Shown here piece after piece: positions 26,182-58,533 of a stretch of 64,000 nucleotides of DNA. This stretch comes from a virus. Under the pieces are notes generated by a model that worked only from the letters and a program-made list of their open reading frames with translations, ran no database searches and was not told the DNA's origin. The stretch lies in the IMG/VR virus record IMGVR_UViG_3300045988_121917, positions 1 to 64,000 of that record; one strand, given 5' to 3'. Position numbers and translations under genes: made by a program. How positions within the stretch are numbered: the stretch's first letter is position 1; every line of letters begins with the position of its first letter.

Positions 26182-26477
26182 TAGTAGATGAGCCTTTTAA
26201 CCCTAATAAATATCCATTAAGAGACTATGCCAGTTTTAGTATAGAAGTGCCTATTCATGGAGATAGATATGGCGCCAGATGTAAATTTTCTCGGGCACAT
26301 AGGGAAGTATTAGATATTATTGATGCAAATATGATTAGTTTTACTTTTCAAGATTATTGGGAATTTAATGAATTTGTAGATATGTTAAATCAAATGAAAA
26401 AATCCATTGATGAAAAAGCTGGATATGGAAAAGAAATAGGCTTAGTAAATAAAATTAATTTTGATAATGGAGAGTGA
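26178..26477 (+). CDS. hypothetical protein
   Basis: 99-aa ORF, ATGA-coupled to the primase. Confidence 0.4.
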   Translation: MIVDEPFNPNKYPLRDYASFSIEVPIHGDRYGARCKFSRAHREVLDIIDANMISFTFQDYWEFNEFVDMLNQMKKSIDEKAGYGKEIGLVNKINFDNGE

Positions 26478-34838: not shown

Positions 34839-35201
34839 ATGAGTCAAGTAGTAAAAAGAGTTTGTGATTTATGTGGACATGAAATTACAGAAAACTTAGA
34901 TACTGGTAATATTAATTTTAATTATGCAAATTCTATGGGCTATATGTGTAGTCATAACATGGATATTTGTAAGGAGTGCGCTCCAAAGATTGTTCCTGCT
35001 CTTCATAAAACCTTAACAGATTTGTTTAAATTAAAAGAAAATGATAATGAGGTTTCTGATTTAAGTACATTCTTTCAGAGAGAAAGTATTATGCAGGAAG
35101 AAATGAGAAAATATCAGGAAGAGATAGATAAAGCAAATAAGCCAGGTGAAAATACTACACCAGGAGAATCAACAGGTAAAGAGGAAGAAGCAAGCGTATG
35201 A
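34839..35201 (+). CDS. hypothetical zinc-ribbon protein
   Basis: CDLCGH...CKEC motifs. RBS AAAAGGAG. Confidence 0.45.
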   Translation: MSQVVKRVCDLCGHEITENLDTGNINFNYANSMGYMCSHNMDICKECAPKIVPALHKTLTDLFKLKENDNEVSDLSTFFQRESIMQEEMRKYQEEIDKANKPGENTTPGESTGKEEEASV

Positions 35202-35770: not shown

Positions 35771-35844
35771 TTTATCCATCGCAAAAACCATATATAGTGT
35801 TAAGACTTAAAAAATTTTACTAAATATAGATGGAGGGATACAAT

Positions 35845-38163
35845 ATGTTAGAAGTTCAAAAACGAAATGGTGATATTGTCCCATTTGATAAAGAAAAAAT
35901 TATTGACGCAGTAAATAGAGCGATGATTGAAGTAGATAAAATCCTTTATGAAACAGATACTTCAAAAGATATTGCCACTGAAATTGAAGAAATGGCTAAA
36001 CGCTCTAAGACAACTATTTCTGTAGAAACTATTCAAGATTGCGTAGAAGATTTATTGATGCAATCTGAAAGAAGAGATGTTGCAAGAGCGTATATTCGTT
36101 ATAGATATAAGCAAGAAGCAAAGAGAGAACATGAGGCAGTTTTTATTAAAACTTATAGTGAAAAATTGGAAGCCCGCAATGTTCAAAATCAAAATGCTAA
36201 TGTAGATGAACATTCTTTTGGTGGACGTATGGGTGAAGCAAGTTCAGTTATGACAAAAAAATATGCTTTAGATTATATCGTATCTAAAATGTCAAGAGAT
36301 AATCATTTAAACAATGAGATTTATATTCACGACTTAGATAGTTATGCTGTTGGAATGCATAATTGTTTGTCACTACCTATAGATGATTTACTCAGAGATG
36401 GTTTTAATACTCGCCAAACTGATGTTCGTCCTGCTCAATCAGTTAATACAGCTTTTCAGCTTTTAGCAGTATTATTTCAATTACAATCATTACAGCAGTT
36501 TGGAGGAGTATCTGCTACTCACTTAGACTGGAGCATGGTTCCTTATGTTCGTAGAAGTTTTTATAAGCATTTCTTAGATGGTGTTAAATATTGTCAAAAA
36601 GGTCAGATGCTTGGATTAGCCGGAATTTATGAAGATTTTGATTTATCTAATGCAAAAGATATGTGGATTAAAGCTGATGCTTCTATTAATGATGATGTAT
36701 TTGTTAGAAATGAAGCTGCTTATAAATATGCTATGGATATGACAACAAAAGAAACTTATCAGGCTGTAGAAGGAATGTATCATAATCTTAATACATTGCA
36801 ATCTCGGAGTGGAAATCAGTTACCTTTTACTTCTATTAATTATGGCACATGTACTTTACCAGAAGGAAGATTGGTAACAGAAGCTTTATTAAATGTATCT
36901 ATTAAAGGTATTGGAAAGCTTCATAAAACTTCTATTTTTCCTTGTGGAATTTTCCAGTGTATGAAAGGAGTTAATCGTGAAGAAGGAGACCCAAATTACG
37001 ATTTATTTAAACTCGCATTACGTTCAACCGCCACAAGACTGTACCCAAATTATGCTAATGTAGATTGGTCTGGAAACGCAGGATATGACCCAGACGACCC
37101 GACGACTTACTTCAGTACAATGGGATGCAGAACTGCCAACGGATGGGATATCAATGGTTTCGGCCAAAAGAAGGATGGACGTGGAAATATTTGTCCTGTA
37201 ACAATTATTTTACCTACATTAGCGATGGAAGCTAAACAGAATTTTATGTCTCAATATGCTTTAACTGACGAAGATGCAAAAGAAGCTTTTGCAGTTGAAT
37301 ATTTCATGACTCTTTTAGATGAAAAAATTCATCAGGCAAAAGATATGTTAATTGAACGTTTTGATTGGATTTGTTCTCAGGATGCTTCTGCCGCAACTTT
37401 TATGTATGAGAATGGTACAATGAAAGGATATATTCCAGAAGAAGGAATAAGAAGTGCATTGAAGCATGGAACTTTAGCATTAGGTCAGTTAGGACTCGCT
37501 GAGACTCTTCAAATTCTTATTGGTACAGACCATACTACTCCAGAAGGAATGAAACTGGCTAAAAGAATTGAACAGTTATTTAAAGATAGATGTGCGGAAT
37601 TTAAAGAAGAATATAAACTTAATTTTGGAGTATATTATACTCCGGCTGAGAACCTTTGCTATAAAGCTTTAAAAAACTTTAAAGCAAAATATGGTGTAAT
37701 TGAAAATGTAAGTGACAAAGAATTCTTTACTAATTCAATTCATGTTCCAGTGTGGAAAAAAATGTCTCCATTTGAAAAGATTGATATTGAATCTCAATTA
37801 ACTGGTTATTCATCTGCGGGATGTATTACTTATATTGAATTAGATTCCGGTATTAAAAATAATCTTGAGGCATTAGAGCAAATTGTAAATTATGCTATGG
37901 ATAAAGATATTCCATATTTTGCGGTCAATGTACCAAATGATACATGCCTTGAGTGCGGCTACACAGATGAATTTAATGATAGATGTCCTATTTGCGGAAG
38001 CACTCATATCCAACAGCTTAGAAGAGTTACTGGATATTTAACAGGAAATTATAAAACTGCTTTTAATCTTGGAAAACAAGATGAAGTTGAACATCGTGTT
38101 AAGCATGGAGGAAGAAGAGAATGGGCGCAGATAAAACCTGGCACGACAAAGAAGAATACTTAA
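35845..38163 (+). CDS. nrdD: anaerobic ribonucleoside-triphosphate reductase (class III RNR)
   Basis: ATP-cone-like N-terminus, C-terminal Zn ribbon CLEC...CPIC, and glycyl-radical motif RVTGYLTG. RBS GGAGGGA before the ATG at 35845. Confidence 0.9.
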   Translation: MLEVQKRNGDIVPFDKEKIIDAVNRAMIEVDKILYETDTSKDIATEIEEMAKRSKTTISVETIQDCVEDLLMQSERRDVARAYIRYRYKQEAKREHEAVFIKTYSEKLEARNVQNQNANVDEHSFGGRMGEASSVMTKKYALDYIVSKMSRDNHLNNEIYIHDLDSYAVGMHNCLSLPIDDLLRDGFNTRQTDVRPAQSVNTAFQLLAVLFQLQSLQQFGGVSATHLDWSMVPYVRRSFYKHFLDGVKYCQKGQMLGLAGIYEDFDLSNAKDMWIKADASINDDVFVRNEAAYKYAMDMTTKETYQAVEGMYHNLNTLQSRSGNQLPFTSINYGTCTLPEGRLVTEALLNVSIKGIGKLHKTSIFPCGIFQCMKGVNREEGDPNYDLFKLALRSTATRLYPNYANVDWSGNAGYDPDDPTTYFSTMGCRTANGWDINGFGQKKDGRGNICPVTIILPTLAMEAKQNFMSQYALTDEDAKEAFAVEYFMTLLDEKIHQAKDMLIERFDWICSQDASAATFMYENGTMKGYIPEEGIRSALKHGTLALGQLGLAETLQILIGTDHTTPEGMKLAKRIEQLFKDRCAEFKEEYKLNFGVYYTPAENLCYKALKNFKAKYGVIENVSDKEFFTNSIHVPVWKKMSPFEKIDIESQLTGYSSAGCITYIELDSGIKNNLEALEQIVNYAMDKDIPYFAVNVPNDTCLECGYTDEFNDRCPICGSTHIQQLRRVTGYLTGNYKTAFNLGKQDEVEHRVKHGGRREWAQIKPGTTKKNT

Positions 38164-38318
38164 AACAAGCAAAAGAATGTAAATATTGTAGAGAACTAGA
38201 TGCAGATGATACTTTATATATGGCAAACGACTGAGATGGCGGAGTAGGATTTGAATATATCAGGCATATTAAATACTGCCCTATCTGCGGCCGCAAGCTT
38301 TTTAATTGGGAGGAATAA
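38121..38318 (+). pseudogene. small zinc-ribbon ORF (CKYC...CPIC) interrupted by an in-frame TGA
   Basis: Frame-0 ORF from ATG 38121 to TGA 38232-38234. It continues in the same frame to TAA 38316-38318 and contains a second CxxC. Could be recoding, a pseudogene, or a sequencing error. Confidence 0.2.
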
Positions 38319-38323
38319 TTATA

Positions 38324-38803
38324 ATGCGTTATGCAGGAATTATTAAAAATGATTTTTCCGCCGCTCCTGGAATAAGTGTAACTTTTTTTACACAAGGTTG
38401 CCCTCACAAATGTGAGGGTTGCCACAATCCAGAGACTTGGGATTTTGAAGGCGGAGAAGAAGTTACTCATGATACTATTTTAGAGGTTATTGAAGCTATT
38501 ACTGCTAATGGATTACATCGTAATTTATGTATTATGGGAGGAGAGCCTCTTTGCCCAGAAAATCAATTTTTGACTAATTTAATTATTAATTCTGTTAAAG
38601 AAAAACTTCCTGACACTAAAATTTATTTATGGACAGGATATTGTTTAGAAGATTTAGATATGAGTAATAATAGAATTAAATCAATACTTGAGCAAGTAGA
38701 TTGCATTATTGATGGTCCTTATGATAAAACAAAAAGAGATGTTTCTTTATTTATGAGAGGTTCATCTAATCAACGAATTTTATATAAGGGAACTGATTAT
38801 TGA
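38324..38803 (+). CDS. nrdG: anaerobic RNR activating protein (radical SAM)
   Basis: CPHKCEGC CxxxCxxC cluster near the N-terminus, about 160 aa, immediately after nrdD. RBS GGGAGG. Confidence 0.85.
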   Translation: MRYAGIIKNDFSAAPGISVTFFTQGCPHKCEGCHNPETWDFEGGEEVTHDTILEVIEAITANGLHRNLCIMGGEPLCPENQFLTNLIINSVKEKLPDTKIYLWTGYCLEDLDMSNNRIKSILEQVDCIIDGPYDKTKRDVSLFMRGSSNQRILYKGTDY

Positions 38804-42686: not shown

Positions 42687-44111
42687 ATGATAGAAAATAA
42701 TGAAAAAATTTATTTTACAAATATAACTTTATTTACTACTGCTTTATGTAATCTTAATTGCGGATATTGTTATATTTGTAAAGATGCTACTGGATGTTTA
42801 AAACAAATAGATGATGATTTGGCTAAAGATTTTGAAAATGGAAGTCAAATTAAACAAGTCTATGATGTTGATCCAGAAGCAGATAAACATATTAAGCATA
42901 TTACTTTATGGGGAGGAGAACCTTTTCTTCATATAGAACGTTTTATAGATCACTTTGAAGAATATACAAAGGCTTTTCCAAACTTTAATGAATTAGATAC
43001 TTCAACAAATTTTACTCTTCCAAACCAAGTTGAATCTTTAAAAAGATTATTTGATACAATTATTAAATATTATCATGGTAATCAAAAATTTCATTTTGAT
43101 CTTCAGGTCTCAATTGATGGGCCTGAAGAGATGAATGATTTGGGAAGAGGTAAAGGAGTTACTCAAAAGTTCTTAAAGAATTTTAGAGATTTATGTGAAT
43201 TAGAATTTGATGATTCTAAAATTGATTTATATGTTCATACTAAACCAACTTTTTCAAAACCTACATTTCATTTTGTAGATACACCAGAAAAAGCATATGA
43301 ATGGTTTGAATTTTTCGATAGAGAAATGTATCAGCCTTATAAGAATAGAAAAACTCGAAAATGGTGTTTCTTACCATGTCTTTTCAATTATGCAACTCCA
43401 GCAGAATGGACAAAAGATGATGGACTTGAAGTGGCAAAGATTTATCGTTCAATCCAAAAGGTAACTCCAAAAATAAAACAATTAGATGGATGGATTCCTA
43501 ATTATGAAACTTATATTCCAAGCGTAGAGTTCTTATTAGGACGATTAAAAGATAATAATTCATTTAATAAGAAAAAATGTTTGGATTGTTCAAAGCCATT
43601 CTGCGGCGGAGGATGCGGTTCATTTTCACATGTAGTAGTTCCTATCCATGATGGAAAATATACTATGTGTCATAGAGGTATGTTTGATGATTATGTAGAT
43701 TATCATAATAATATGAAAGACCATGCTGATATGAATGGACTTGCCGCAAAATATGTTCAGACAAATAATGAATCTGCTTGGATTTATGATAAAGATCAGT
43801 TCTTAAATCTTAAAAAGACTTTTGACAATCTTATCCTATATCCTCATCAAATTTTTTATACAGATTATGTTAAGTTTGTATATGAATATGCAAAAGCAGG
43901 TATCATTGATGAGAAATGGACTGATATGAGTAAAATTGATAAAACGATTGCTATTTTTGTTGATAAATCATGTTGTTTACAAGATTCATATATTATTACT
44001 GGCTCTTGGATAACATCAAATCCATTAGAAATTCCATTGTGGTATAATGGAGCTATGGATGTAGTTGAAGAAGAAATTGACAGAGTAATGGCGGAAAGAG
44101 GTATTGTATGA
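42687..44111 (+). CDS. radical SAM / SPASM-domain enzyme (anSME-like)
   Basis: CNLNCGYC cluster, GGEP motif, anSME-like VSIDGPEEMND, C-terminal Cys cluster CLDCSKPFCGGGCGS...C. RBS AAAAGGAG. Confidence 0.85.
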   Translation: MIENNEKIYFTNITLFTTALCNLNCGYCYICKDATGCLKQIDDDLAKDFENGSQIKQVYDVDPEADKHIKHITLWGGEPFLHIERFIDHFEEYTKAFPNFNELDTSTNFTLPNQVESLKRLFDTIIKYYHGNQKFHFDLQVSIDGPEEMNDLGRGKGVTQKFLKNFRDLCELEFDDSKIDLYVHTKPTFSKPTFHFVDTPEKAYEWFEFFDREMYQPYKNRKTRKWCFLPCLFNYATPAEWTKDDGLEVAKIYRSIQKVTPKIKQLDGWIPNYETYIPSVEFLLGRLKDNNSFNKKKCLDCSKPFCGGGCGSFSHVVVPIHDGKYTMCHRGMFDDYVDYHNNMKDHADMNGLAAKYVQTNNESAWIYDKDQFLNLKKTFDNLILYPHQIFYTDYVKFVYEYAKAGIIDEKWTDMSKIDKTIAIFVDKSCCLQDSYIITGSWITSNPLEIPLWYNGAMDVVEEEIDRVMAERGIV

Positions 44112-52017: not shown

Positions 52018-55000
52018 CTATTTAACTTTAATCCAAATTCTTCCATTAACTTTTACGTTTCCTGTGCCCCAAACTTCATACTCTGGAATTTCAGAAACTG
52101 TACCAACAATACGGTCTGGATATTCTCTGACTTCTTCACGAGTCATTTTTGAAATAGTTCCATTAGGTCCAGAACAAACTGGGTCACCAGCTTGATATGA
52201 ATCTCTATCTTCATAAGGATAAGCTAATACCCTACCTGAGACCGCAATTGGTGTTTTAGTTTGTTCAGTTTTTCCAATCGCAAAGCCAAAAGTATCTGAT
52301 ACTATATTTGCTCCTGGCTGAAGACGTTTAGTTGATTGAACCAAATCTCCTAGGCCAGTTTCAATAACACATTGGCCTGGTTTAATATTTATAGTATTAC
52401 GATATTCGGCATAGTCATTCCATACTGCGCCATAAACTTTTCCCGCATACACACTAGTAGTATTATAACCTGCATGACCATTTCCAAAATAATAACTATT
52501 GATAGTTGATGAACTGTTTCTACTCCAAGATTGATAATTAATCCATATATCTCCAGAATACGCATCTGGAATAAAATTAAATTCTTTTCCGCCTACTAAA
52601 AAATCATGACCATGTTTTGCAACTAAACCACTATTATTAATTAAAGCTCCAGTCATTGTGTCACCAGATTTTTTAACATAATTACCATTAAGCGTTCCAG
52701 TATAATTACCAGTTGTAAGAATTCTATTCCAATTACCCCAAGCTGTTGCACTTGTACCAATACGAGTCCAAAGATTACCATTTGCAGTATAAGCTATTTC
52801 AATTGGATAACCACCAGACAAATCACCGCCTAAACCGTAGCTTCTCCAACTTAATAAACCAATATATGAACCTCCATCAGATAGACTATAAGTACCATTC
52901 CCTTTAAAATTTAAAGTCATACCTCTTGGAGTATCTTGTGGAGTTCTTGTTGCACTTCTAGTGTCATAAGAATCTAATCTAGCTGCTCTAGCAGCCTCTC
53001 CATTAAGATATCCATTAAATTGAGTTGCAGTAACCTGACCATTAAAATATGCAGTTCCATTTACATATAAATTATAGTCCGCAGTATCTGCATCTCTAAC
53101 AGCTCTATTGATGTATAAAGCATTATGATGTATTTGTACAGCTGGAATTACACCTAAAGAATTCCATTTTGTTTTATTACTTGGTCTAATTCCATTAACA
53201 AATATCCATCCTGCATGAGCATACATATTTGCAAATACTACAGATTCTCTGTTAGGAGTAGAGTAATAAACGCCTGATTCTAAACCTCCAGTAACGCCAC
53301 CATGATCAGCTTTTCTCCAAGTTAAGCTACAATTTCCATCTCCTATATTCACATTTCCATTTGCTGGTGCTAAAAGAATGTCTCCATAAGAGGTAGCTAT
53401 TTTTAAATGAGTACTAGATTTAAAAGTATTATCGATATTTCCATTAAAAGTAATAATAGCTCTTTGAGTATTATTACTAGCATTGAATCTAATATGAGAT
53501 TCATCTCCAGTAGATTCATTACCATAAATATTAAAATCACGATAAATATGACCGCTTCTCCATCTACGATTACTTAAGCCAAGATCCATTGCATTTGTTG
53601 AATATGGAGATATATAATTTGTGCTTCCATATAAAACATAACTATCTCCTGAAGTAGAAGTCTCAGAATTAGTAGTGCGTTTTCCCCAATACCAATTTCC
53701 ATCATTATTAACGCATAATCCATACCCTAATGTATTCGTAGATAATAAGATAGATACATGATCATTACCTTTAAATACAGTAGCTAATCTATGTCCGCCA
53801 ATTCCCCAAGCATTATTTGAATTGATATTTATTGAAACAGCTTTTGAATTATAGTTACGAATAAAATTGCTATCAGTCATATGCCAGCCACCGCCATAGG
53901 TCTCAGAATACCATCCTCCAGTTCCGATACTTCTAAACCAACTATTTGAATATACTTCATGCCAAGGATATCCAATCGTTCCTAAATTTCCATCTGTTGA
54001 AGCAACAGTTTTATTAAAAATAAAAGGAATATTTGCGCTATTATATAAATGACACCAATTAGAGTTTTGAGAACCTATTGTAATAGTATTTCCATTAGAA
54101 CTAATCTGTAATAGTCTTGGAATTTCAGCATTGCTTTTTGTGGTAGAAATTAACCAAGTTGAAACTCCACCAACATTAGTCCAAATTCCCATTCTACCAT
54201 TTGTAGCATCTAAATGAATATGTCCAGTACTATTATAAACATCTACAAATCTCTCACTTGTATCATTTGCTTTAATACATAAGTGACCAGTCATGGTATC
54301 GCCAGTTTTTAAAACATATCTACCATCTAATGTATAGGTATAATTATCAACATCTAATACTTGAACCCATTTAGAACCTACCACATTTCCACCTCTAACA
54401 ATTTTATAATAAATACTTTTATCATTAAAGGGAATTGCAACATCTGTATAATAATTATTTAATTGATTAGTATGTCTGTTTCTTAATATGTACCACCAGG
54501 CACTTGACGGAGTGTCATTAGTATCTACGGCAGCTCCAGCAGTACCACTTATATTCAACCAAGTTAATCCACCTACATCTCCAGAATTTGTACTACTATT
54601 TTCTCCTAATATACCATGAAAACATGATTTATTTGGTATAGTAAGGTTTCCATCTATGTAAGAAGCTCCATTAACTCGTAATCTATAAGCAGAATCATTT
54701 GAGTTGTAGTTATATCCAATATTAGTATATTGAAACCATGAATAACCATCTATATTAATAGCCCAATTATTCGCTCCAGAATGAGAACAAATGTCTTGTG
54801 TAAAAACCCAATTAGAATTATCTGCATTTCCAAGATATAATGGTTGTGTAGAACGATTCATTATACGAGTTGCACCAGATAATTGTCCTGCAACATCTGC
54901 GGTTCCATTAAAAGGCTGTCCCCAAATATTTCTGGTATTTAATAATTTAGTTGCTGCATAGCTACTATTTGGTTTATCAATTGAGGCAGTTACATTTTCT

Positions 55001-58000
55001 AAAGTAGTAACAAAGTCAATATTCCAATTAAAGCACCATTGTTTATATTCATAATTTTGAAAACCTACAACAACATCATGAATTTGAATTTGTGGATAAC
55101 TCCAACTAGTTGCAACATCTCCAATATAAATGACACTATTAGAAGCTGTTTCTCCATAATAAACGGGTAAATTAGATTTTGATAAGTCCCCATTATATCC
55201 TATAGAATAAGCAGTGCATTGACTCCATACACCATCATAATAATTATACCCTTTAATAGTATATTCACAACTTGTATTTGTAGAATAATTATAAATAGAA
55301 ACTTTAAAACCTAACATCGTATTAGAACGTCGTTGTGGTAAAGTAATTCTTAAATATCCTGTTTTAACATCAGCTGTAGTTACATAACTTCCTCCGTCTG
55401 GAAAAGCAATAAAGCTACTTTTTCCAACCGCACTAAAAGCTGCATAACCCTTATTATTAATAGAAGCAACATTGGTATTACCAGTTCTAAAAATCCATCC
55501 TCTATTAGAAGTGCTATTCATAGTAAAATAAGTTGCCCAATCATTGCAAACAGCTCCATGAGAGTCAAATGTATCAACTCCTGCAAAAGCAATTCCATAA
55601 GTAGGAAGTGAACCAGTTCCTCCATAGCCACCTCCATATAAAGAAATACCTTTTCCAGTATTAGAAGCTGTATTTGTAATTCCAATATGAGTTGCATATA
55701 ATGTATCAGAAAAATATCCAGTACCAGAAACTATTAAACGATGATTTGAATTAGCATCTGTGCCTATTCCAACTTGGCCATTTTGATTGATTCCAATAGC
55801 AATTACATCTGAATTACCTCGATTATCAGCATATAATCTTAATAGATTGCCTACTTCAGAACCAGTTCCAATATATTTTAATCCATATCCATAATATTGC
55901 TTAGTAGAAGTTCCAGAACCAATTTGCCATAACCAATTATCAGTATTATTTCCATTCATCCAAATTACTGGATTTTGATTATTAGCAGTAAAGTTTTTAT
56001 AAATACCACCTGAATTTGCCAATGGCTCAATAATTCCATTATCTCTAATAACTAATAGATTTTTCCAAGTAGATGCAGAATCTTCACTTTGTTGAAAAGT
56101 AAATACAGGAGTATTTGCAGTTGAATCATCTGTTGTTAATAATCTTTGTCTATATGTATCTGAGTCCCAATAAATACTTGTTCCTGCTCTAGTCATATAT
56201 ATATCATTAGCTACTCTTATATTACCTTGAAATAAAGAATCACCTTTAACATAAAAAGTATAACTTCCTACAGGAGAAGTATCTCCAATAGATACTTGAG
56301 TTGAACTGGCATAATGATGAGAAGCTTGTATTGCATTAGCTCCATTAGTCCATACTAATCTATTTGCGGTTTGTCCATATAAATTAAGATTAGTTACATA
56401 AAGAGTTCTCCATGCTAATGCTTGTGTACCTAAATCATATGCGTTAGTTTGGTTAGGATTTACATGGCTATTAAAAGTAAAATAACCTCCACCCTCCTTT
56501 ACAAAACGCATATTTCCATTATCAGAAATATCCGTTTGAATATATCCATATCTTTTAGAAGAAGTATCTCCTTTTGCAGTATACCATCCAATCCAATTAT
56601 CTCCAGATAAATATTTATTACCAAACCATCCTGCATTAGCTCTAATAGTTGCTGTGCCAGTACCACTACCAAAAATAAAAATTGATGGAATTTCTTTAGA
56701 ATCTTTTTTTCTATATCCAAAATAAACAGTATTAGAATTATTTGTTCCGCCAAAATTTATTTCATTATTAAATTCCGCATAAACTTTCATAGTACCAGCA
56801 TCTGAAGTAAAACCACCTAAAGCTTTTACTCCACCAGCAGTATTTATAGAATCAGAATCTGTATTTTCTACAGCAAATTTTTTTCCACCATAAATTCTAA
56901 CATAACTGTTGTCTTTCATATAAATACCGCCGCCATGAGCGGAATTTTGCCATCCTGTAGAAGATGTATTTGAGAAAAACCAGCCTGAAGAAGTCACATT
57001 GAAAAAATTTGGATTAGTCTTTGCATTAGCTGTTGTAGAAACTTTAACATCTGCCCAATAATAATTATTTATATAAGAGGTATAATTTGAAGAATCTAAA
57101 ACTGTACTCCAAGTTTCATCCCAAATAGAATCACCTTTTTCGCCAGCTTTTGCGCCTCTTATTGCCATATGCGGTTTAGCATCTGTAGTAATCGCTAATT
57201 GAGCGCCCCATCCAGAACCATCCCAACCAAAAGTCAAAACATGTGAATCTCCTACTGGAGGCTTTCCCGTTTTTGTAATTGAACTGGCTAATGAATAAGT
57301 TACTCTACTTTGATATTTATCTGAATTTATTTGATAGTTAATGTTTTCTTGTCTATTACTTGGATTTAAAAATAAGCTATTTGCTCTACTGGCCACAGTT
57401 GCGCTATCTGCGTTACCTTGAAATCTTGTAGATTGAATTAAATTAAAACCAGAAATACTTGCTGGCAAAATTAACTCCAATAAAGCTCCAGTTAATTTAG
57501 TAACTACACCTGTTTCACCAGTAGTTGCATTAGCAATTTTACTAATTTTAAAAGTAACATCATGATCTAATCCAGCTGTACTTACAGAATGAGCAACCCT
57601 AAAATTAGATGGATTATAAACGTACATATCTGTACCATTTTCTCCACCCCATAACCAAGTTGGTTGTCCACCTTGGCCGCTCCAATTGAATGTCATAGGT
57701 AAAGAAGTATTTCCACCTCTACCTAATTTAGCCGCTACAGTTGAAGTATCAGCATTGCCTTGAAAGCGTGTAGCTTGTAATAAATCAAAGCCAGATATTT
57801 TTGTTGGTAAATATAAATCAACTGCGGAACCAGATAAATTAGTCGCAGTACCACTTCCACCTTTAATTGCATCAGCAGTAGAAGCAATCTTAAAAGTTAC
57901 ATTATGGTCTAATTTTGCGCTATCACTGGAATGACCACCGATCCCATTTAAATCATAAGTTTTATCATTAGAACCAGTAATGGTAAAATACCAAACTGGA

Positions 58001-58533
58001 GCACTACCATTTCCTCCCGCAAATCTAACACTTGGTTGGTAATATCTAACAGATATGACACCTTTTGTATTTTCACCACCAAAGGCAATACCAGCACTAT
58101 AATCAGGCTGAAACCAAGCTGGAGCTTTAGCTTGTCCTCTAATAGATTTTAACCAAAAGCCTCCACCATTTTGATTTCCCAATCTTGTCCATTTTAAATC
58201 AGTATCATCATCTGATAAAGTTACAGTAAAATCTTGATGTGCTAATCCATGAGAGTGGTTAGTTGATGTATTTATTTCAATAGTTTCACCGTCTTGAGAA
58301 ATAACTCCTGTTCCTATTACAGAACCAGTTATTTTAATTGGTAAACCAGAAAATTTAACTCTATGGACAGTTCCATTTTTAGTAGCCTTTTTACCATCAA
58401 CAATAGTATCATAGTATATAGAACCATTATTATTTTCATCTATAACAAAATAAATCATACCATTTGTTAATGGCTGATTTGTTGTATTAAAGTCCTTTTT
58501 TAAACCTTGTTTAAATTTAACATAATTTGCCAA
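52018..58533 (-). CDS. giant tail fibre / receptor-binding structural protein
   Basis: 2171 aa, G/N/S/T/Y/W-rich. Internal tandem repeat (HNVTFKIA...ISGFDLLQATRFQGNAD and HDVTFKIS...ISGFNLIQSTRFQGNAD). Own consensus promoter upstream. Confidence 0.65.
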   Translation of the reverse strand: MANYVKFKQGLKKDFNTTNQPLTNGMIYFVIDENNNGSIYYDTIVDGKKATKNGTVHRVKFSGLPIKITGSVIGTGVISQDGETIEINTSTNHSHGLAHQDFTVTLSDDDTDLKWTRLGNQNGGGFWLKSIRGQAKAPAWFQPDYSAGIAFGGENTKGVISVRYYQPSVRFAGGNGSAPVWYFTITGSNDKTYDLNGIGGHSSDSAKLDHNVTFKIASTADAIKGGSGTATNLSGSAVDLYLPTKISGFDLLQATRFQGNADTSTVAAKLGRGGNTSLPMTFNWSGQGGQPTWLWGGENGTDMYVYNPSNFRVAHSVSTAGLDHDVTFKISKIANATTGETGVVTKLTGALLELILPASISGFNLIQSTRFQGNADSATVASRANSLFLNPSNRQENINYQINSDKYQSRVTYSLASSITKTGKPPVGDSHVLTFGWDGSGWGAQLAITTDAKPHMAIRGAKAGEKGDSIWDETWSTVLDSSNYTSYINNYYWADVKVSTTANAKTNPNFFNVTSSGWFFSNTSSTGWQNSAHGGGIYMKDNSYVRIYGGKKFAVENTDSDSINTAGGVKALGGFTSDAGTMKVYAEFNNEINFGGTNNSNTVYFGYRKKDSKEIPSIFIFGSGTGTATIRANAGWFGNKYLSGDNWIGWYTAKGDTSSKRYGYIQTDISDNGNMRFVKEGGGYFTFNSHVNPNQTNAYDLGTQALAWRTLYVTNLNLYGQTANRLVWTNGANAIQASHHYASSTQVSIGDTSPVGSYTFYVKGDSLFQGNIRVANDIYMTRAGTSIYWDSDTYRQRLLTTDDSTANTPVFTFQQSEDSASTWKNLLVIRDNGIIEPLANSGGIYKNFTANNQNPVIWMNGNNTDNWLWQIGSGTSTKQYYGYGLKYIGTGSEVGNLLRLYADNRGNSDVIAIGINQNGQVGIGTDANSNHRLIVSGTGYFSDTLYATHIGITNTASNTGKGISLYGGGYGGTGSLPTYGIAFAGVDTFDSHGAVCNDWATYFTMNSTSNRGWIFRTGNTNVASINNKGYAAFSAVGKSSFIAFPDGGSYVTTADVKTGYLRITLPQRRSNTMLGFKVSIYNYSTNTSCEYTIKGYNYYDGVWSQCTAYSIGYNGDLSKSNLPVYYGETASNSVIYIGDVATSWSYPQIQIHDVVVGFQNYEYKQWCFNWNIDFVTTLENVTASIDKPNSSYAATKLLNTRNIWGQPFNGTADVAGQLSGATRIMNRSTQPLYLGNADNSNWVFTQDICSHSGANNWAINIDGYSWFQYTNIGYNYNSNDSAYRLRVNGASYIDGNLTIPNKSCFHGILGENSSTNSGDVGGLTWLNISGTAGAAVDTNDTPSSAWWYILRNRHTNQLNNYYTDVAIPFNDKSIYYKIVRGGNVVGSKWVQVLDVDNYTYTLDGRYVLKTGDTMTGHLCIKANDTSERFVDVYNSTGHIHLDATNGRMGIWTNVGGVSTWLISTTKSNAEIPRLLQISSNGNTITIGSQNSNWCHLYNSANIPFIFNKTVASTDGNLGTIGYPWHEVYSNSWFRSIGTGGWYSETYGGGWHMTDSNFIRNYNSKAVSININSNNAWGIGGHRLATVFKGNDHVSILLSTNTLGYGLCVNNDGNWYWGKRTTNSETSTSGDSYVLYGSTNYISPYSTNAMDLGLSNRRWRSGHIYRDFNIYGNESTGDESHIRFNASNNTQRAIITFNGNIDNTFKSSTHLKIATSYGDILLAPANGNVNIGDGNCSLTWRKADHGGVTGGLESGVYYSTPNRESVVFANMYAHAGWIFVNGIRPSNKTKWNSLGVIPAVQIHHNALYINRAVRDADTADYNLYVNGTAYFNGQVTATQFNGYLNGEAARAARLDSYDTRSATRTPQDTPRGMTLNFKGNGTYSLSDGGSYIGLLSWRSYGLGGDLSGGYPIEIAYTANGNLWTRIGTSATAWGNWNRILTTGNYTGTLNGNYVKKSGDTMTGALINNSGLVAKHGHDFLVGGKEFNFIPDAYSGDIWINYQSWSRNSSSTINSYYFGNGHAGYNTTSVYAGKVYGAVWNDYAEYRNTINIKPGQCVIETGLGDLVQSTKRLQPGANIVSDTFGFAIGKTEQTKTPIAVSGRVLAYPYEDRDSYQAGDPVCSGPNGTISKMTREEVREYPDRIVGTVSEIPEYEVWGTGNVKVNGRIWIKVK

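Follow-up and report, generated by a model that had tools for sequence, protein, structure and literature searches.

A probable natural nonsense allele of a small zinc-ribbon gene upstream of nrdG in a gut phage

An in-frame TGA found between nrdD and nrdG in a 64,000-nucleotide stretch of phage DNA (hereafter the window; 32% G+C, tiled by long ORFs under code 11) is most probably a real, recent natural nonsense allele (TGG Trp to TGA) of a bona fide small phage gene. When the sequence was read directly, the ATG at 38121, the TGA at 38232–38234, and the TAA at 38316–38318 were found to share a single frame on the plus strand, exactly as the initial annotation had placed them. The conceptual translation of 38121–38318 is MGADKTWHDKEEYLKQAKECKYCRELDADDTLYMAND, a stop, DGGVGFEYIRHIKYCPICGRKLFNWEE, and a second stop, with one CxxC pair on either side of the TGA. 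The initial annotation had offered site-specific recoding, a decaying duplicate of the nrdD tail, or a sequencing error as explanations. A natural nonsense allele, which was absent from these options, is the fitting one, with basal readthrough possible.

The small zinc-ribbon gene (38121..38318, plus strand) consists of 65 codons and a stop and is broken at codon 38. A GGAGG ribosome-binding site, likewise read directly, lies at 38107..38111 on the same strand, 9 nt 5' of the ATG (38121–38123). The N-terminal 37 codons (38121..38231, plus strand), which contain a helix, the first CxxC knuckle (C20 and C23), and the first beta strand, are the sole part made if termination occurs at the TGA. The TGA itself (38232..38234, plus strand) occupies the position of a near-invariant Trp38, which is TGG in relatives and therefore one G-to-A change, at 38234, away from the stop. 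The C-terminal 27 codons and the TAA (38235..38318, plus strand) contain the second beta strand and the second knuckle (C53 and C56); no in-frame ATG, GTG, or TTG was found in this half, and thus it cannot be translated alone.

The gene is tightly packed between its neighbors. Upstream, nrdD (35830..38163, plus strand; Pfam labels ATP-cone, NRDD, and Gly_radical), which encodes the large subunit of anaerobic ribonucleotide reductase, overlaps the start of the small gene by its last 43 nt in a different frame. Its product has a C-terminal extension of ∼18 residues (GGRREWAQIKPGTTKKNT) past the end of the Thomasclavelia phage NrdD (..RVKHNKNN), and the DNA for this extension (window 38107–38163) covers, in a different frame, the ribosome-binding site and initial 43 nt of the zinc-ribbon gene. 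Downstream, the TAA ends 5 nt before the ATG (38324) of nrdG (38324..38803, plus strand), which encodes the radical-SAM activase and whose ribosome-binding site, GGGAGG (38308–38313), falls within the last codons of the small gene. No promoter or terminator was found between nrdD, the small gene, and nrdG.

The open frame alone is unremarkable, given that 229 stops in the window have at least 25 open codons on both flanks. The split ORF is taken as a real gene because of homology. A search of a 5.8-billion-protein collection with the joined sequence as query yielded uninterrupted homologues of 64–66 aa, 71–97% identical, that span the stop and come from hundreds of related gut-phage contigs. 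This result bore out the proposal that a single zinc-ribbon gene has been divided into two halves by a stop. Codon 38 is W in the intact clusters P0001–P0012 with the exception of P0010, where it is C and sits in a diverged local motif (NNCERG). The closest intact cluster, P0001, alone represents 295 contigs, and the window allele, identified by an exact record of its 37-aa product, is on about 9–13.

The DNA of these relatives told the same story. TGG stands at the position of the window's TGA in L011–L036 (GAC TGG GAT versus GAC TGA GAT in the window) and in 11 of 11 close IMG/VR relatives (L042–L052, contigs up to 195.8 kb), in the latter as GAC TGG GAT or AAC TGG GAT. The orthologues thus have a sense codon one mutation from a stop, which is the pattern of a nonsense allele or young pseudogene. 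Pairwise dN/dS among intact alleles was 0.04–0.3 overall and 0.03–0.15 for the C-terminal half, indicating that both halves code for protein under constraint. The small gene is fixed directly upstream of nrdG in this ∼195-kb gut-phage family and always ends 2–5 nt before nrdG, even where an extra 118-aa ORF parts it from nrdD. Several of the relatives' contigs (among L042–L052, from IMG/VR dataset 3300045988, and L021–L030) measure 193.9–196.7 kb, suggesting that the complete genome of the family is ∼195 kb and that the window's own scaffold, at 94 kb, is about half of one.

Outside this family, a search of GenBank phages at the DNA level and by tblastn returned no homologue of the small ORF. 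The nearest GenBank phages, Thomasclavelia TR-TP1 and TR-TP2, match in nrdD only, at 75% nucleotide identity, and the small ORFs downstream of their nrdD are unrelated to that of the window. A scan of bacterial genomes gave no confirmed relative and hence no clue to the host. One large candidate, P0018 (3179 aa, 37 matched stretches), was rejected as a C2H2-finger false positive, and the odd-tailed short variants P0013, P0015, P0017, P0169, and P0170, which are on contigs of ∼1 kb or less and look like chimeras or junctions, were left out of the evidence.

The assembled contigs indicated that the TGA at 38232–38234 is a real variant and not an assembly error. Contigs L003, L004, L005, L007, and L009 cover the whole region and match the window at 100% identity for as much as 6.1 kb, with the TGA and the untouched C-terminal half included. 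The TGA-bearing contigs represent at least three sequencing runs; their sources include runs ERR321226 and ERR209219 as well as analyses ERZ1309883 and ERZ28626940 (the window is scaffold_4 of ERZ28626940, offset 596), and the allele was seen in three assembly styles: MEGAHIT-style (k127), SPAdes-style (NODE), and Logan. The same TGA-bearing contig was recorded in up to 3 samples. A sequencing or assembly error at 38234, with G as the true base, would explain why relatives have TGG and why the difference is a single base within a GGG run, but this run is too short for an Illumina error hotspot and the same TGA came up in all of these runs, analyses, and assembly styles; we therefore consider an error very improbable. 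The initial annotation had held that relatives with a sense codon at this position would point to a sequencing error. Comparison of the nrdD-nrdG region did reveal the uninterrupted ORF with TGG in relatives, but the inference drawn from it proved too simple, because the TGA is nevertheless reproduced across runs and assemblers.

The TGA-bearing contigs are one clone seen repeatedly, which does not by itself prove spread among hosts, and the human samples with this clone may share one cohort or even one person. Apart from the stop, the window lineage showed no private non-synonymous change, indicating that the allele is young. An exact-NrdG lookup for a closer TGG relative returned the TGA clone only. 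L006 and L008 were dropped as evidence for the stop, because the 37 aa are found there only since the contig ends. L008 (Logan ERR209219_2789) ends at ORF base 113, just one base short of the site that varies between TGA and TGG. Such an end may be what is expected from a graph branch if both alleles were in the sample; low coverage is an equally good reason, as the MEGAHIT contigs of ERR209219 are also very fragmented.

Programmed recoding, whether by selenocysteine insertion or by local or global reassignment of TGA, has nothing in its favor beyond the in-frame TGA and the intact frame that follows it, and several lines of evidence make it extremely improbable. TGA terminates 11 of the 59 ORFs of at least 100 aa in the window, including those that end in ATGA overlaps (813–816, 35198–35201, and 44108–44111), in agreement with the earlier view that TGA is a genuine stop elsewhere and that the genome as a whole is not recoded. 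The rarest stop is TAG, which ends 4 of the 59 long ORFs; a 2171-aa ORF on the minus strand (52018–58533) ends in TAG. No other interrupted gene was found in the window, and an in-frame TGA at 26475, upstream of a 597-aa ORF, proved to be merely the stop of a separate 99-aa gene. No tRNA gene was found in these 64 kb of the ∼195-kb genome, of which ∼130 kb lies outside the window. Neither the many in-frame TGAs nor the UCA tRNA that a code 4/25 reassignment or a suppressor tRNA would entail were therefore present within the 64-kb window.

The RNA around the stop likewise gave no sign of recoding. The 75 nt from the TGA have a folding energy of −15.2 kcal/mol (z = 0.08 versus shuffles) and form no downstream hairpin, the next 111 nt, including the nrdG ribosome-binding site, show no structure (z = +1.05), and an Rfam scan gave nothing relevant and no SECIS match. 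The check for a SECIS-like hairpin that the initial annotation had proposed thus found none downstream of the UGA. As for polarity on nrdG, the search revealed no RNA structure by which translation of nrdG would be tied to ribosomes crossing the C-terminal half. Bacterial selenoprotein genes resemble the small gene in that a UGA lies in frame within the coding sequence of a small, Cys-rich protein, but they have a SECIS hairpin just 3' of the UGA, whereas in the small gene there is no such hairpin, the stop is not conserved, and the aligned residue is Trp rather than Cys or Sec (Cys occurs only in P0010). For programmed readthrough, too, the stop would be conserved among relatives and accompanied by a stimulatory structure or context; hundreds of relatives lack the stop, and neither structure nor context was found. 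Moreover, one sister allele, that of L010, is TAG, for which a UGA-specific mechanism could not account. Taken together, these results spoke against site-specific recoding, selenocysteine included.

The small protein belongs to a wider family, which was delineated by a profile search over 1.84 billion cluster representatives. The family comprises 248 clusters (50% identity) at E ≤ 1e-3 and 142 at 1e-10, and its signature, CxxC..GDTLY-x4-(D/S)WDGGIGFDYIRxIKYCPxCGRxL, is N- or C-terminal in proteins of 52–241 aa. In a 74-sequence alignment of this wider family, all four cysteines (C20, C23, C53, and C56) are invariant, and W38 shows at least 90% conservation. An AlphaFold2 model built from the 74 sequences (pLDDT 90.2) has, in order, a helix (7–16), knuckle 1, a short helix (21–25), a hairpin of strands 30–38 and 41–50, and knuckle 2, with W38-D-G-G at the tip of the long hairpin between the two knuckles. 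It replaced a first model, based on 12 close sequences, that was poor (pLDDT 53). Both the alignment and the model have two invariant CxxC pairs around a beta hairpin, as in a zinc ribbon. The small protein is accordingly best described as a predicted four-Cys zinc ribbon, with two knuckles around a beta hairpin and a putative metal site at which Zn and Fe are indistinguishable from sequence.

Comparison with known domains gave no firm assignment: every Pfam match was under the curated cut-off (best E = 0.068; 11.8–16.7 bits versus cut-offs of 25–27), PHROG matches were weak and had no function assigned in PHROG, PDB sequence matches extended only to the CPxCG knuckle, and a structural search of PDB and BFVD with the small protein returned no neighbor. 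The small protein resembles Zn_Ribbon_1, Zn_ribbon_3, and DUF6011 (zinc-ribbon/rubredoxin-like knuckles) in its two invariant CxxC pairs, the second a CPxCG, that bracket a beta hairpin. It differs from them in falling below the Pfam cut-offs, in having no PDB or BFVD neighbor, and in the long signature of its own family, GDTLY-x4-WDGGIGFDYIRxIKYCPxCGRxL. The P0019–P0166 family together with the small protein is thus a candidate for a new domain of unassigned function. Its distant member P0020, the sole one whose context was examined, has small hypothetical ORFs as neighbors and no RNR gene close by, so the association with nrdG may be confined to this group of phages.

These data also bear on the origin of the second half, which the initial annotation had likened to the C-terminal ribbon of NrdD. 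The likeness was confirmed for a CPICG knuckle, alongside genomic adjacency, but did not extend further: BLASTP of the small protein against the NrdD tail aligned just these 5 residues and nothing beyond them, and the Cys spacing is CxxC-29-CxxC in the small protein versus CxxC-10-CxxC in NrdD. Duplication of the C-terminal zinc ribbon of NrdD, with the ORF as its non-coding relic, would explain the CPICG common to both proteins, but such a relic would not be under purifying selection, as the small gene is, nor would it belong to a family of 248 clusters with a member, P0020, in a setting devoid of RNR genes. We give this origin virtually no credence, and the idea of a decaying nrdD-tail duplicate was abandoned.

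The nrdD gene is itself intact in the window. It is split by an HNH_3 endonuclease ORF in close relatives (L021–L030, L006, and L041), where the alignment breaks at window 37640/37644, by GIY-YIG endonuclease ORFs in L033–L035, and by an HNH endonuclease in the Thomasclavelia phages. The split-nrdD regions compared were L021 1–3043, L033 544–2648, and L001 1399–4522; Rfam detected no group I intron at gathering score in the split nrdD of the relatives.

Stops at codon 38 were found in three lineages only, among hundreds of contigs. Besides the window, L010 (ERR9190654) has GAC TAG GAT, and L041 (ERR2597496) has GAC TGA GAT in a background of R21, T35, I42, D62, and a split nrdD. The three lineages differ pairwise at 31–39 of 860 aligned bases (3–4% divergence) and are no nearer to one another than to TGG lineages, and the tract around the stop that lacks any site distinguishing the window from L041 is shorter than 48 nt. 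Because of this divergence and the shortness of the tract, independent G-to-A hits are the simplest account. Under simple mutation models, the chance of three nonsense alleles falling on one codon is 0.006–0.07. It rises to ∼0.25 if most mutations in this AT-rich genome are GC-to-AT transitions and a stop before codon 30 leaves no callable ORF, since the candidate codons are then reduced to W38 and W63. The recurrence at codon 38, which might point to selection or a hotspot, is thus mildly suggestive but not compelling, as mutation bias and detection limits can account for it. In all three stop alleles the C-terminal half is intact at the protein level. Private changes downstream of the stop number 0 in the window and 2 synonymous to 0 non-synonymous in L041, counts far too small for a relaxed-selection test. 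Intact C-terminal halves would also be expected under continued use via readthrough.

We considered whether selection, not random decay, produced the three stops at Trp38 (2 TGA, 1 TAG), either by silencing the gene, for instance as an evasion of a host defence triggered by the zinc-ribbon protein, or by attenuating it through leak at the stop. There is a small chance that this is so. If it were true, the gene for this widespread domain (GDTLY..WDGGIGFDYIRxIKYCPxCGRxL) would be costly under some conditions and naturally polymorphic between on and off states. Less likely again is the more specific proposal of selected leaky expression, by which the stop is kept because low readthrough, of UGA via tRNA-Trp and of UAG via another near-cognate tRNA, yields a reduced but useful dose of protein. 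The recurrence of the stops in three divergent backgrounds would suit this proposal, as would the intact C-terminal halves with the purely synonymous changes in L041 and the fact that the lost residue, Trp, is exactly what UGA misreading inserts (PMC7918605). Set against it are the rarity of the stop alleles, which are confined to three lineages versus hundreds of intact contigs, the lack of any divergence in the window clone, which marks the allele as young, the missing stimulatory structure, a TAG allele that would not give Trp, and the sizable probability of same-codon recurrence under GC-to-AT dominance with detection from codon 30 onward.

On the favored reading, a recent nonsense allele, the ancestral gene has its own GGAGG site and codes for a four-cysteine zinc-ribbon protein of 65 aa, overlapping the end of nrdD and ending 5 nt before nrdG, and one G-to-A transition turned the near-invariant Trp38 TGG into TGA in the window strain. 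Ribosomes would then mostly halt after 37 residues, leaving a fragment with a single CxxC knuckle and only half of the beta hairpin at the center of the fold. Such a fragment presumably could not form the metal site, and the gene would be effectively off, making this a knock-out allele. The truncated product is accordingly expected to be inactive and the gene to be dispensable. The sole path to the full-length protein would be misreading of UGA by tRNA-Trp at a basal, unprogrammed rate, inserting Trp and restoring the exact wild-type sequence at a low level. UGA followed by G is not known as the weakest context for termination in E. coli. Among bacterial stops UGA leaks most, and it is reported to be read as Trp, at very low frequency, in E. 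coli and S. typhimurium (PMC7918605); its decoding by tRNA-Trp variants has been discussed (PMC13092985). A trace of exactly wild-type protein made by readthrough is thus plausible, and the peptide MANDWDGGVGFEYIR, if present at a level comparable to that in TGG strains, would mean functional readthrough.

In these respects the allele resembles natural nonsense polymorphisms in accessory phage and bacterial genes (PMC7918605), in which a single-base change from sense to stop occurs in one lineage while orthologues remain intact, and in which TGA is a leaky stop read as Trp at low frequency. It differs from them in that three divergent strains within a single phage population have been struck at the same codon and in that the gene encodes a 65-aa protein normally missed by annotation. 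The finding is ordinary overall, with a small twist in the triple strike on one codon.

Taken together, these results are mainly a clean negative, in that the striking in-frame TGA which splits this zinc ribbon reflects an ordinary nonsense polymorphism and not recoding. As a by-product, the gene upstream of nrdG was placed in a large unannotated zinc-ribbon family with a strong signature and a confident predicted fold. The presence of at least three separate presumed knock-out alleles in natural phage populations suggests that this gene is dispensable at least sometimes, and these alleles are ready natural mutants for finding its role.
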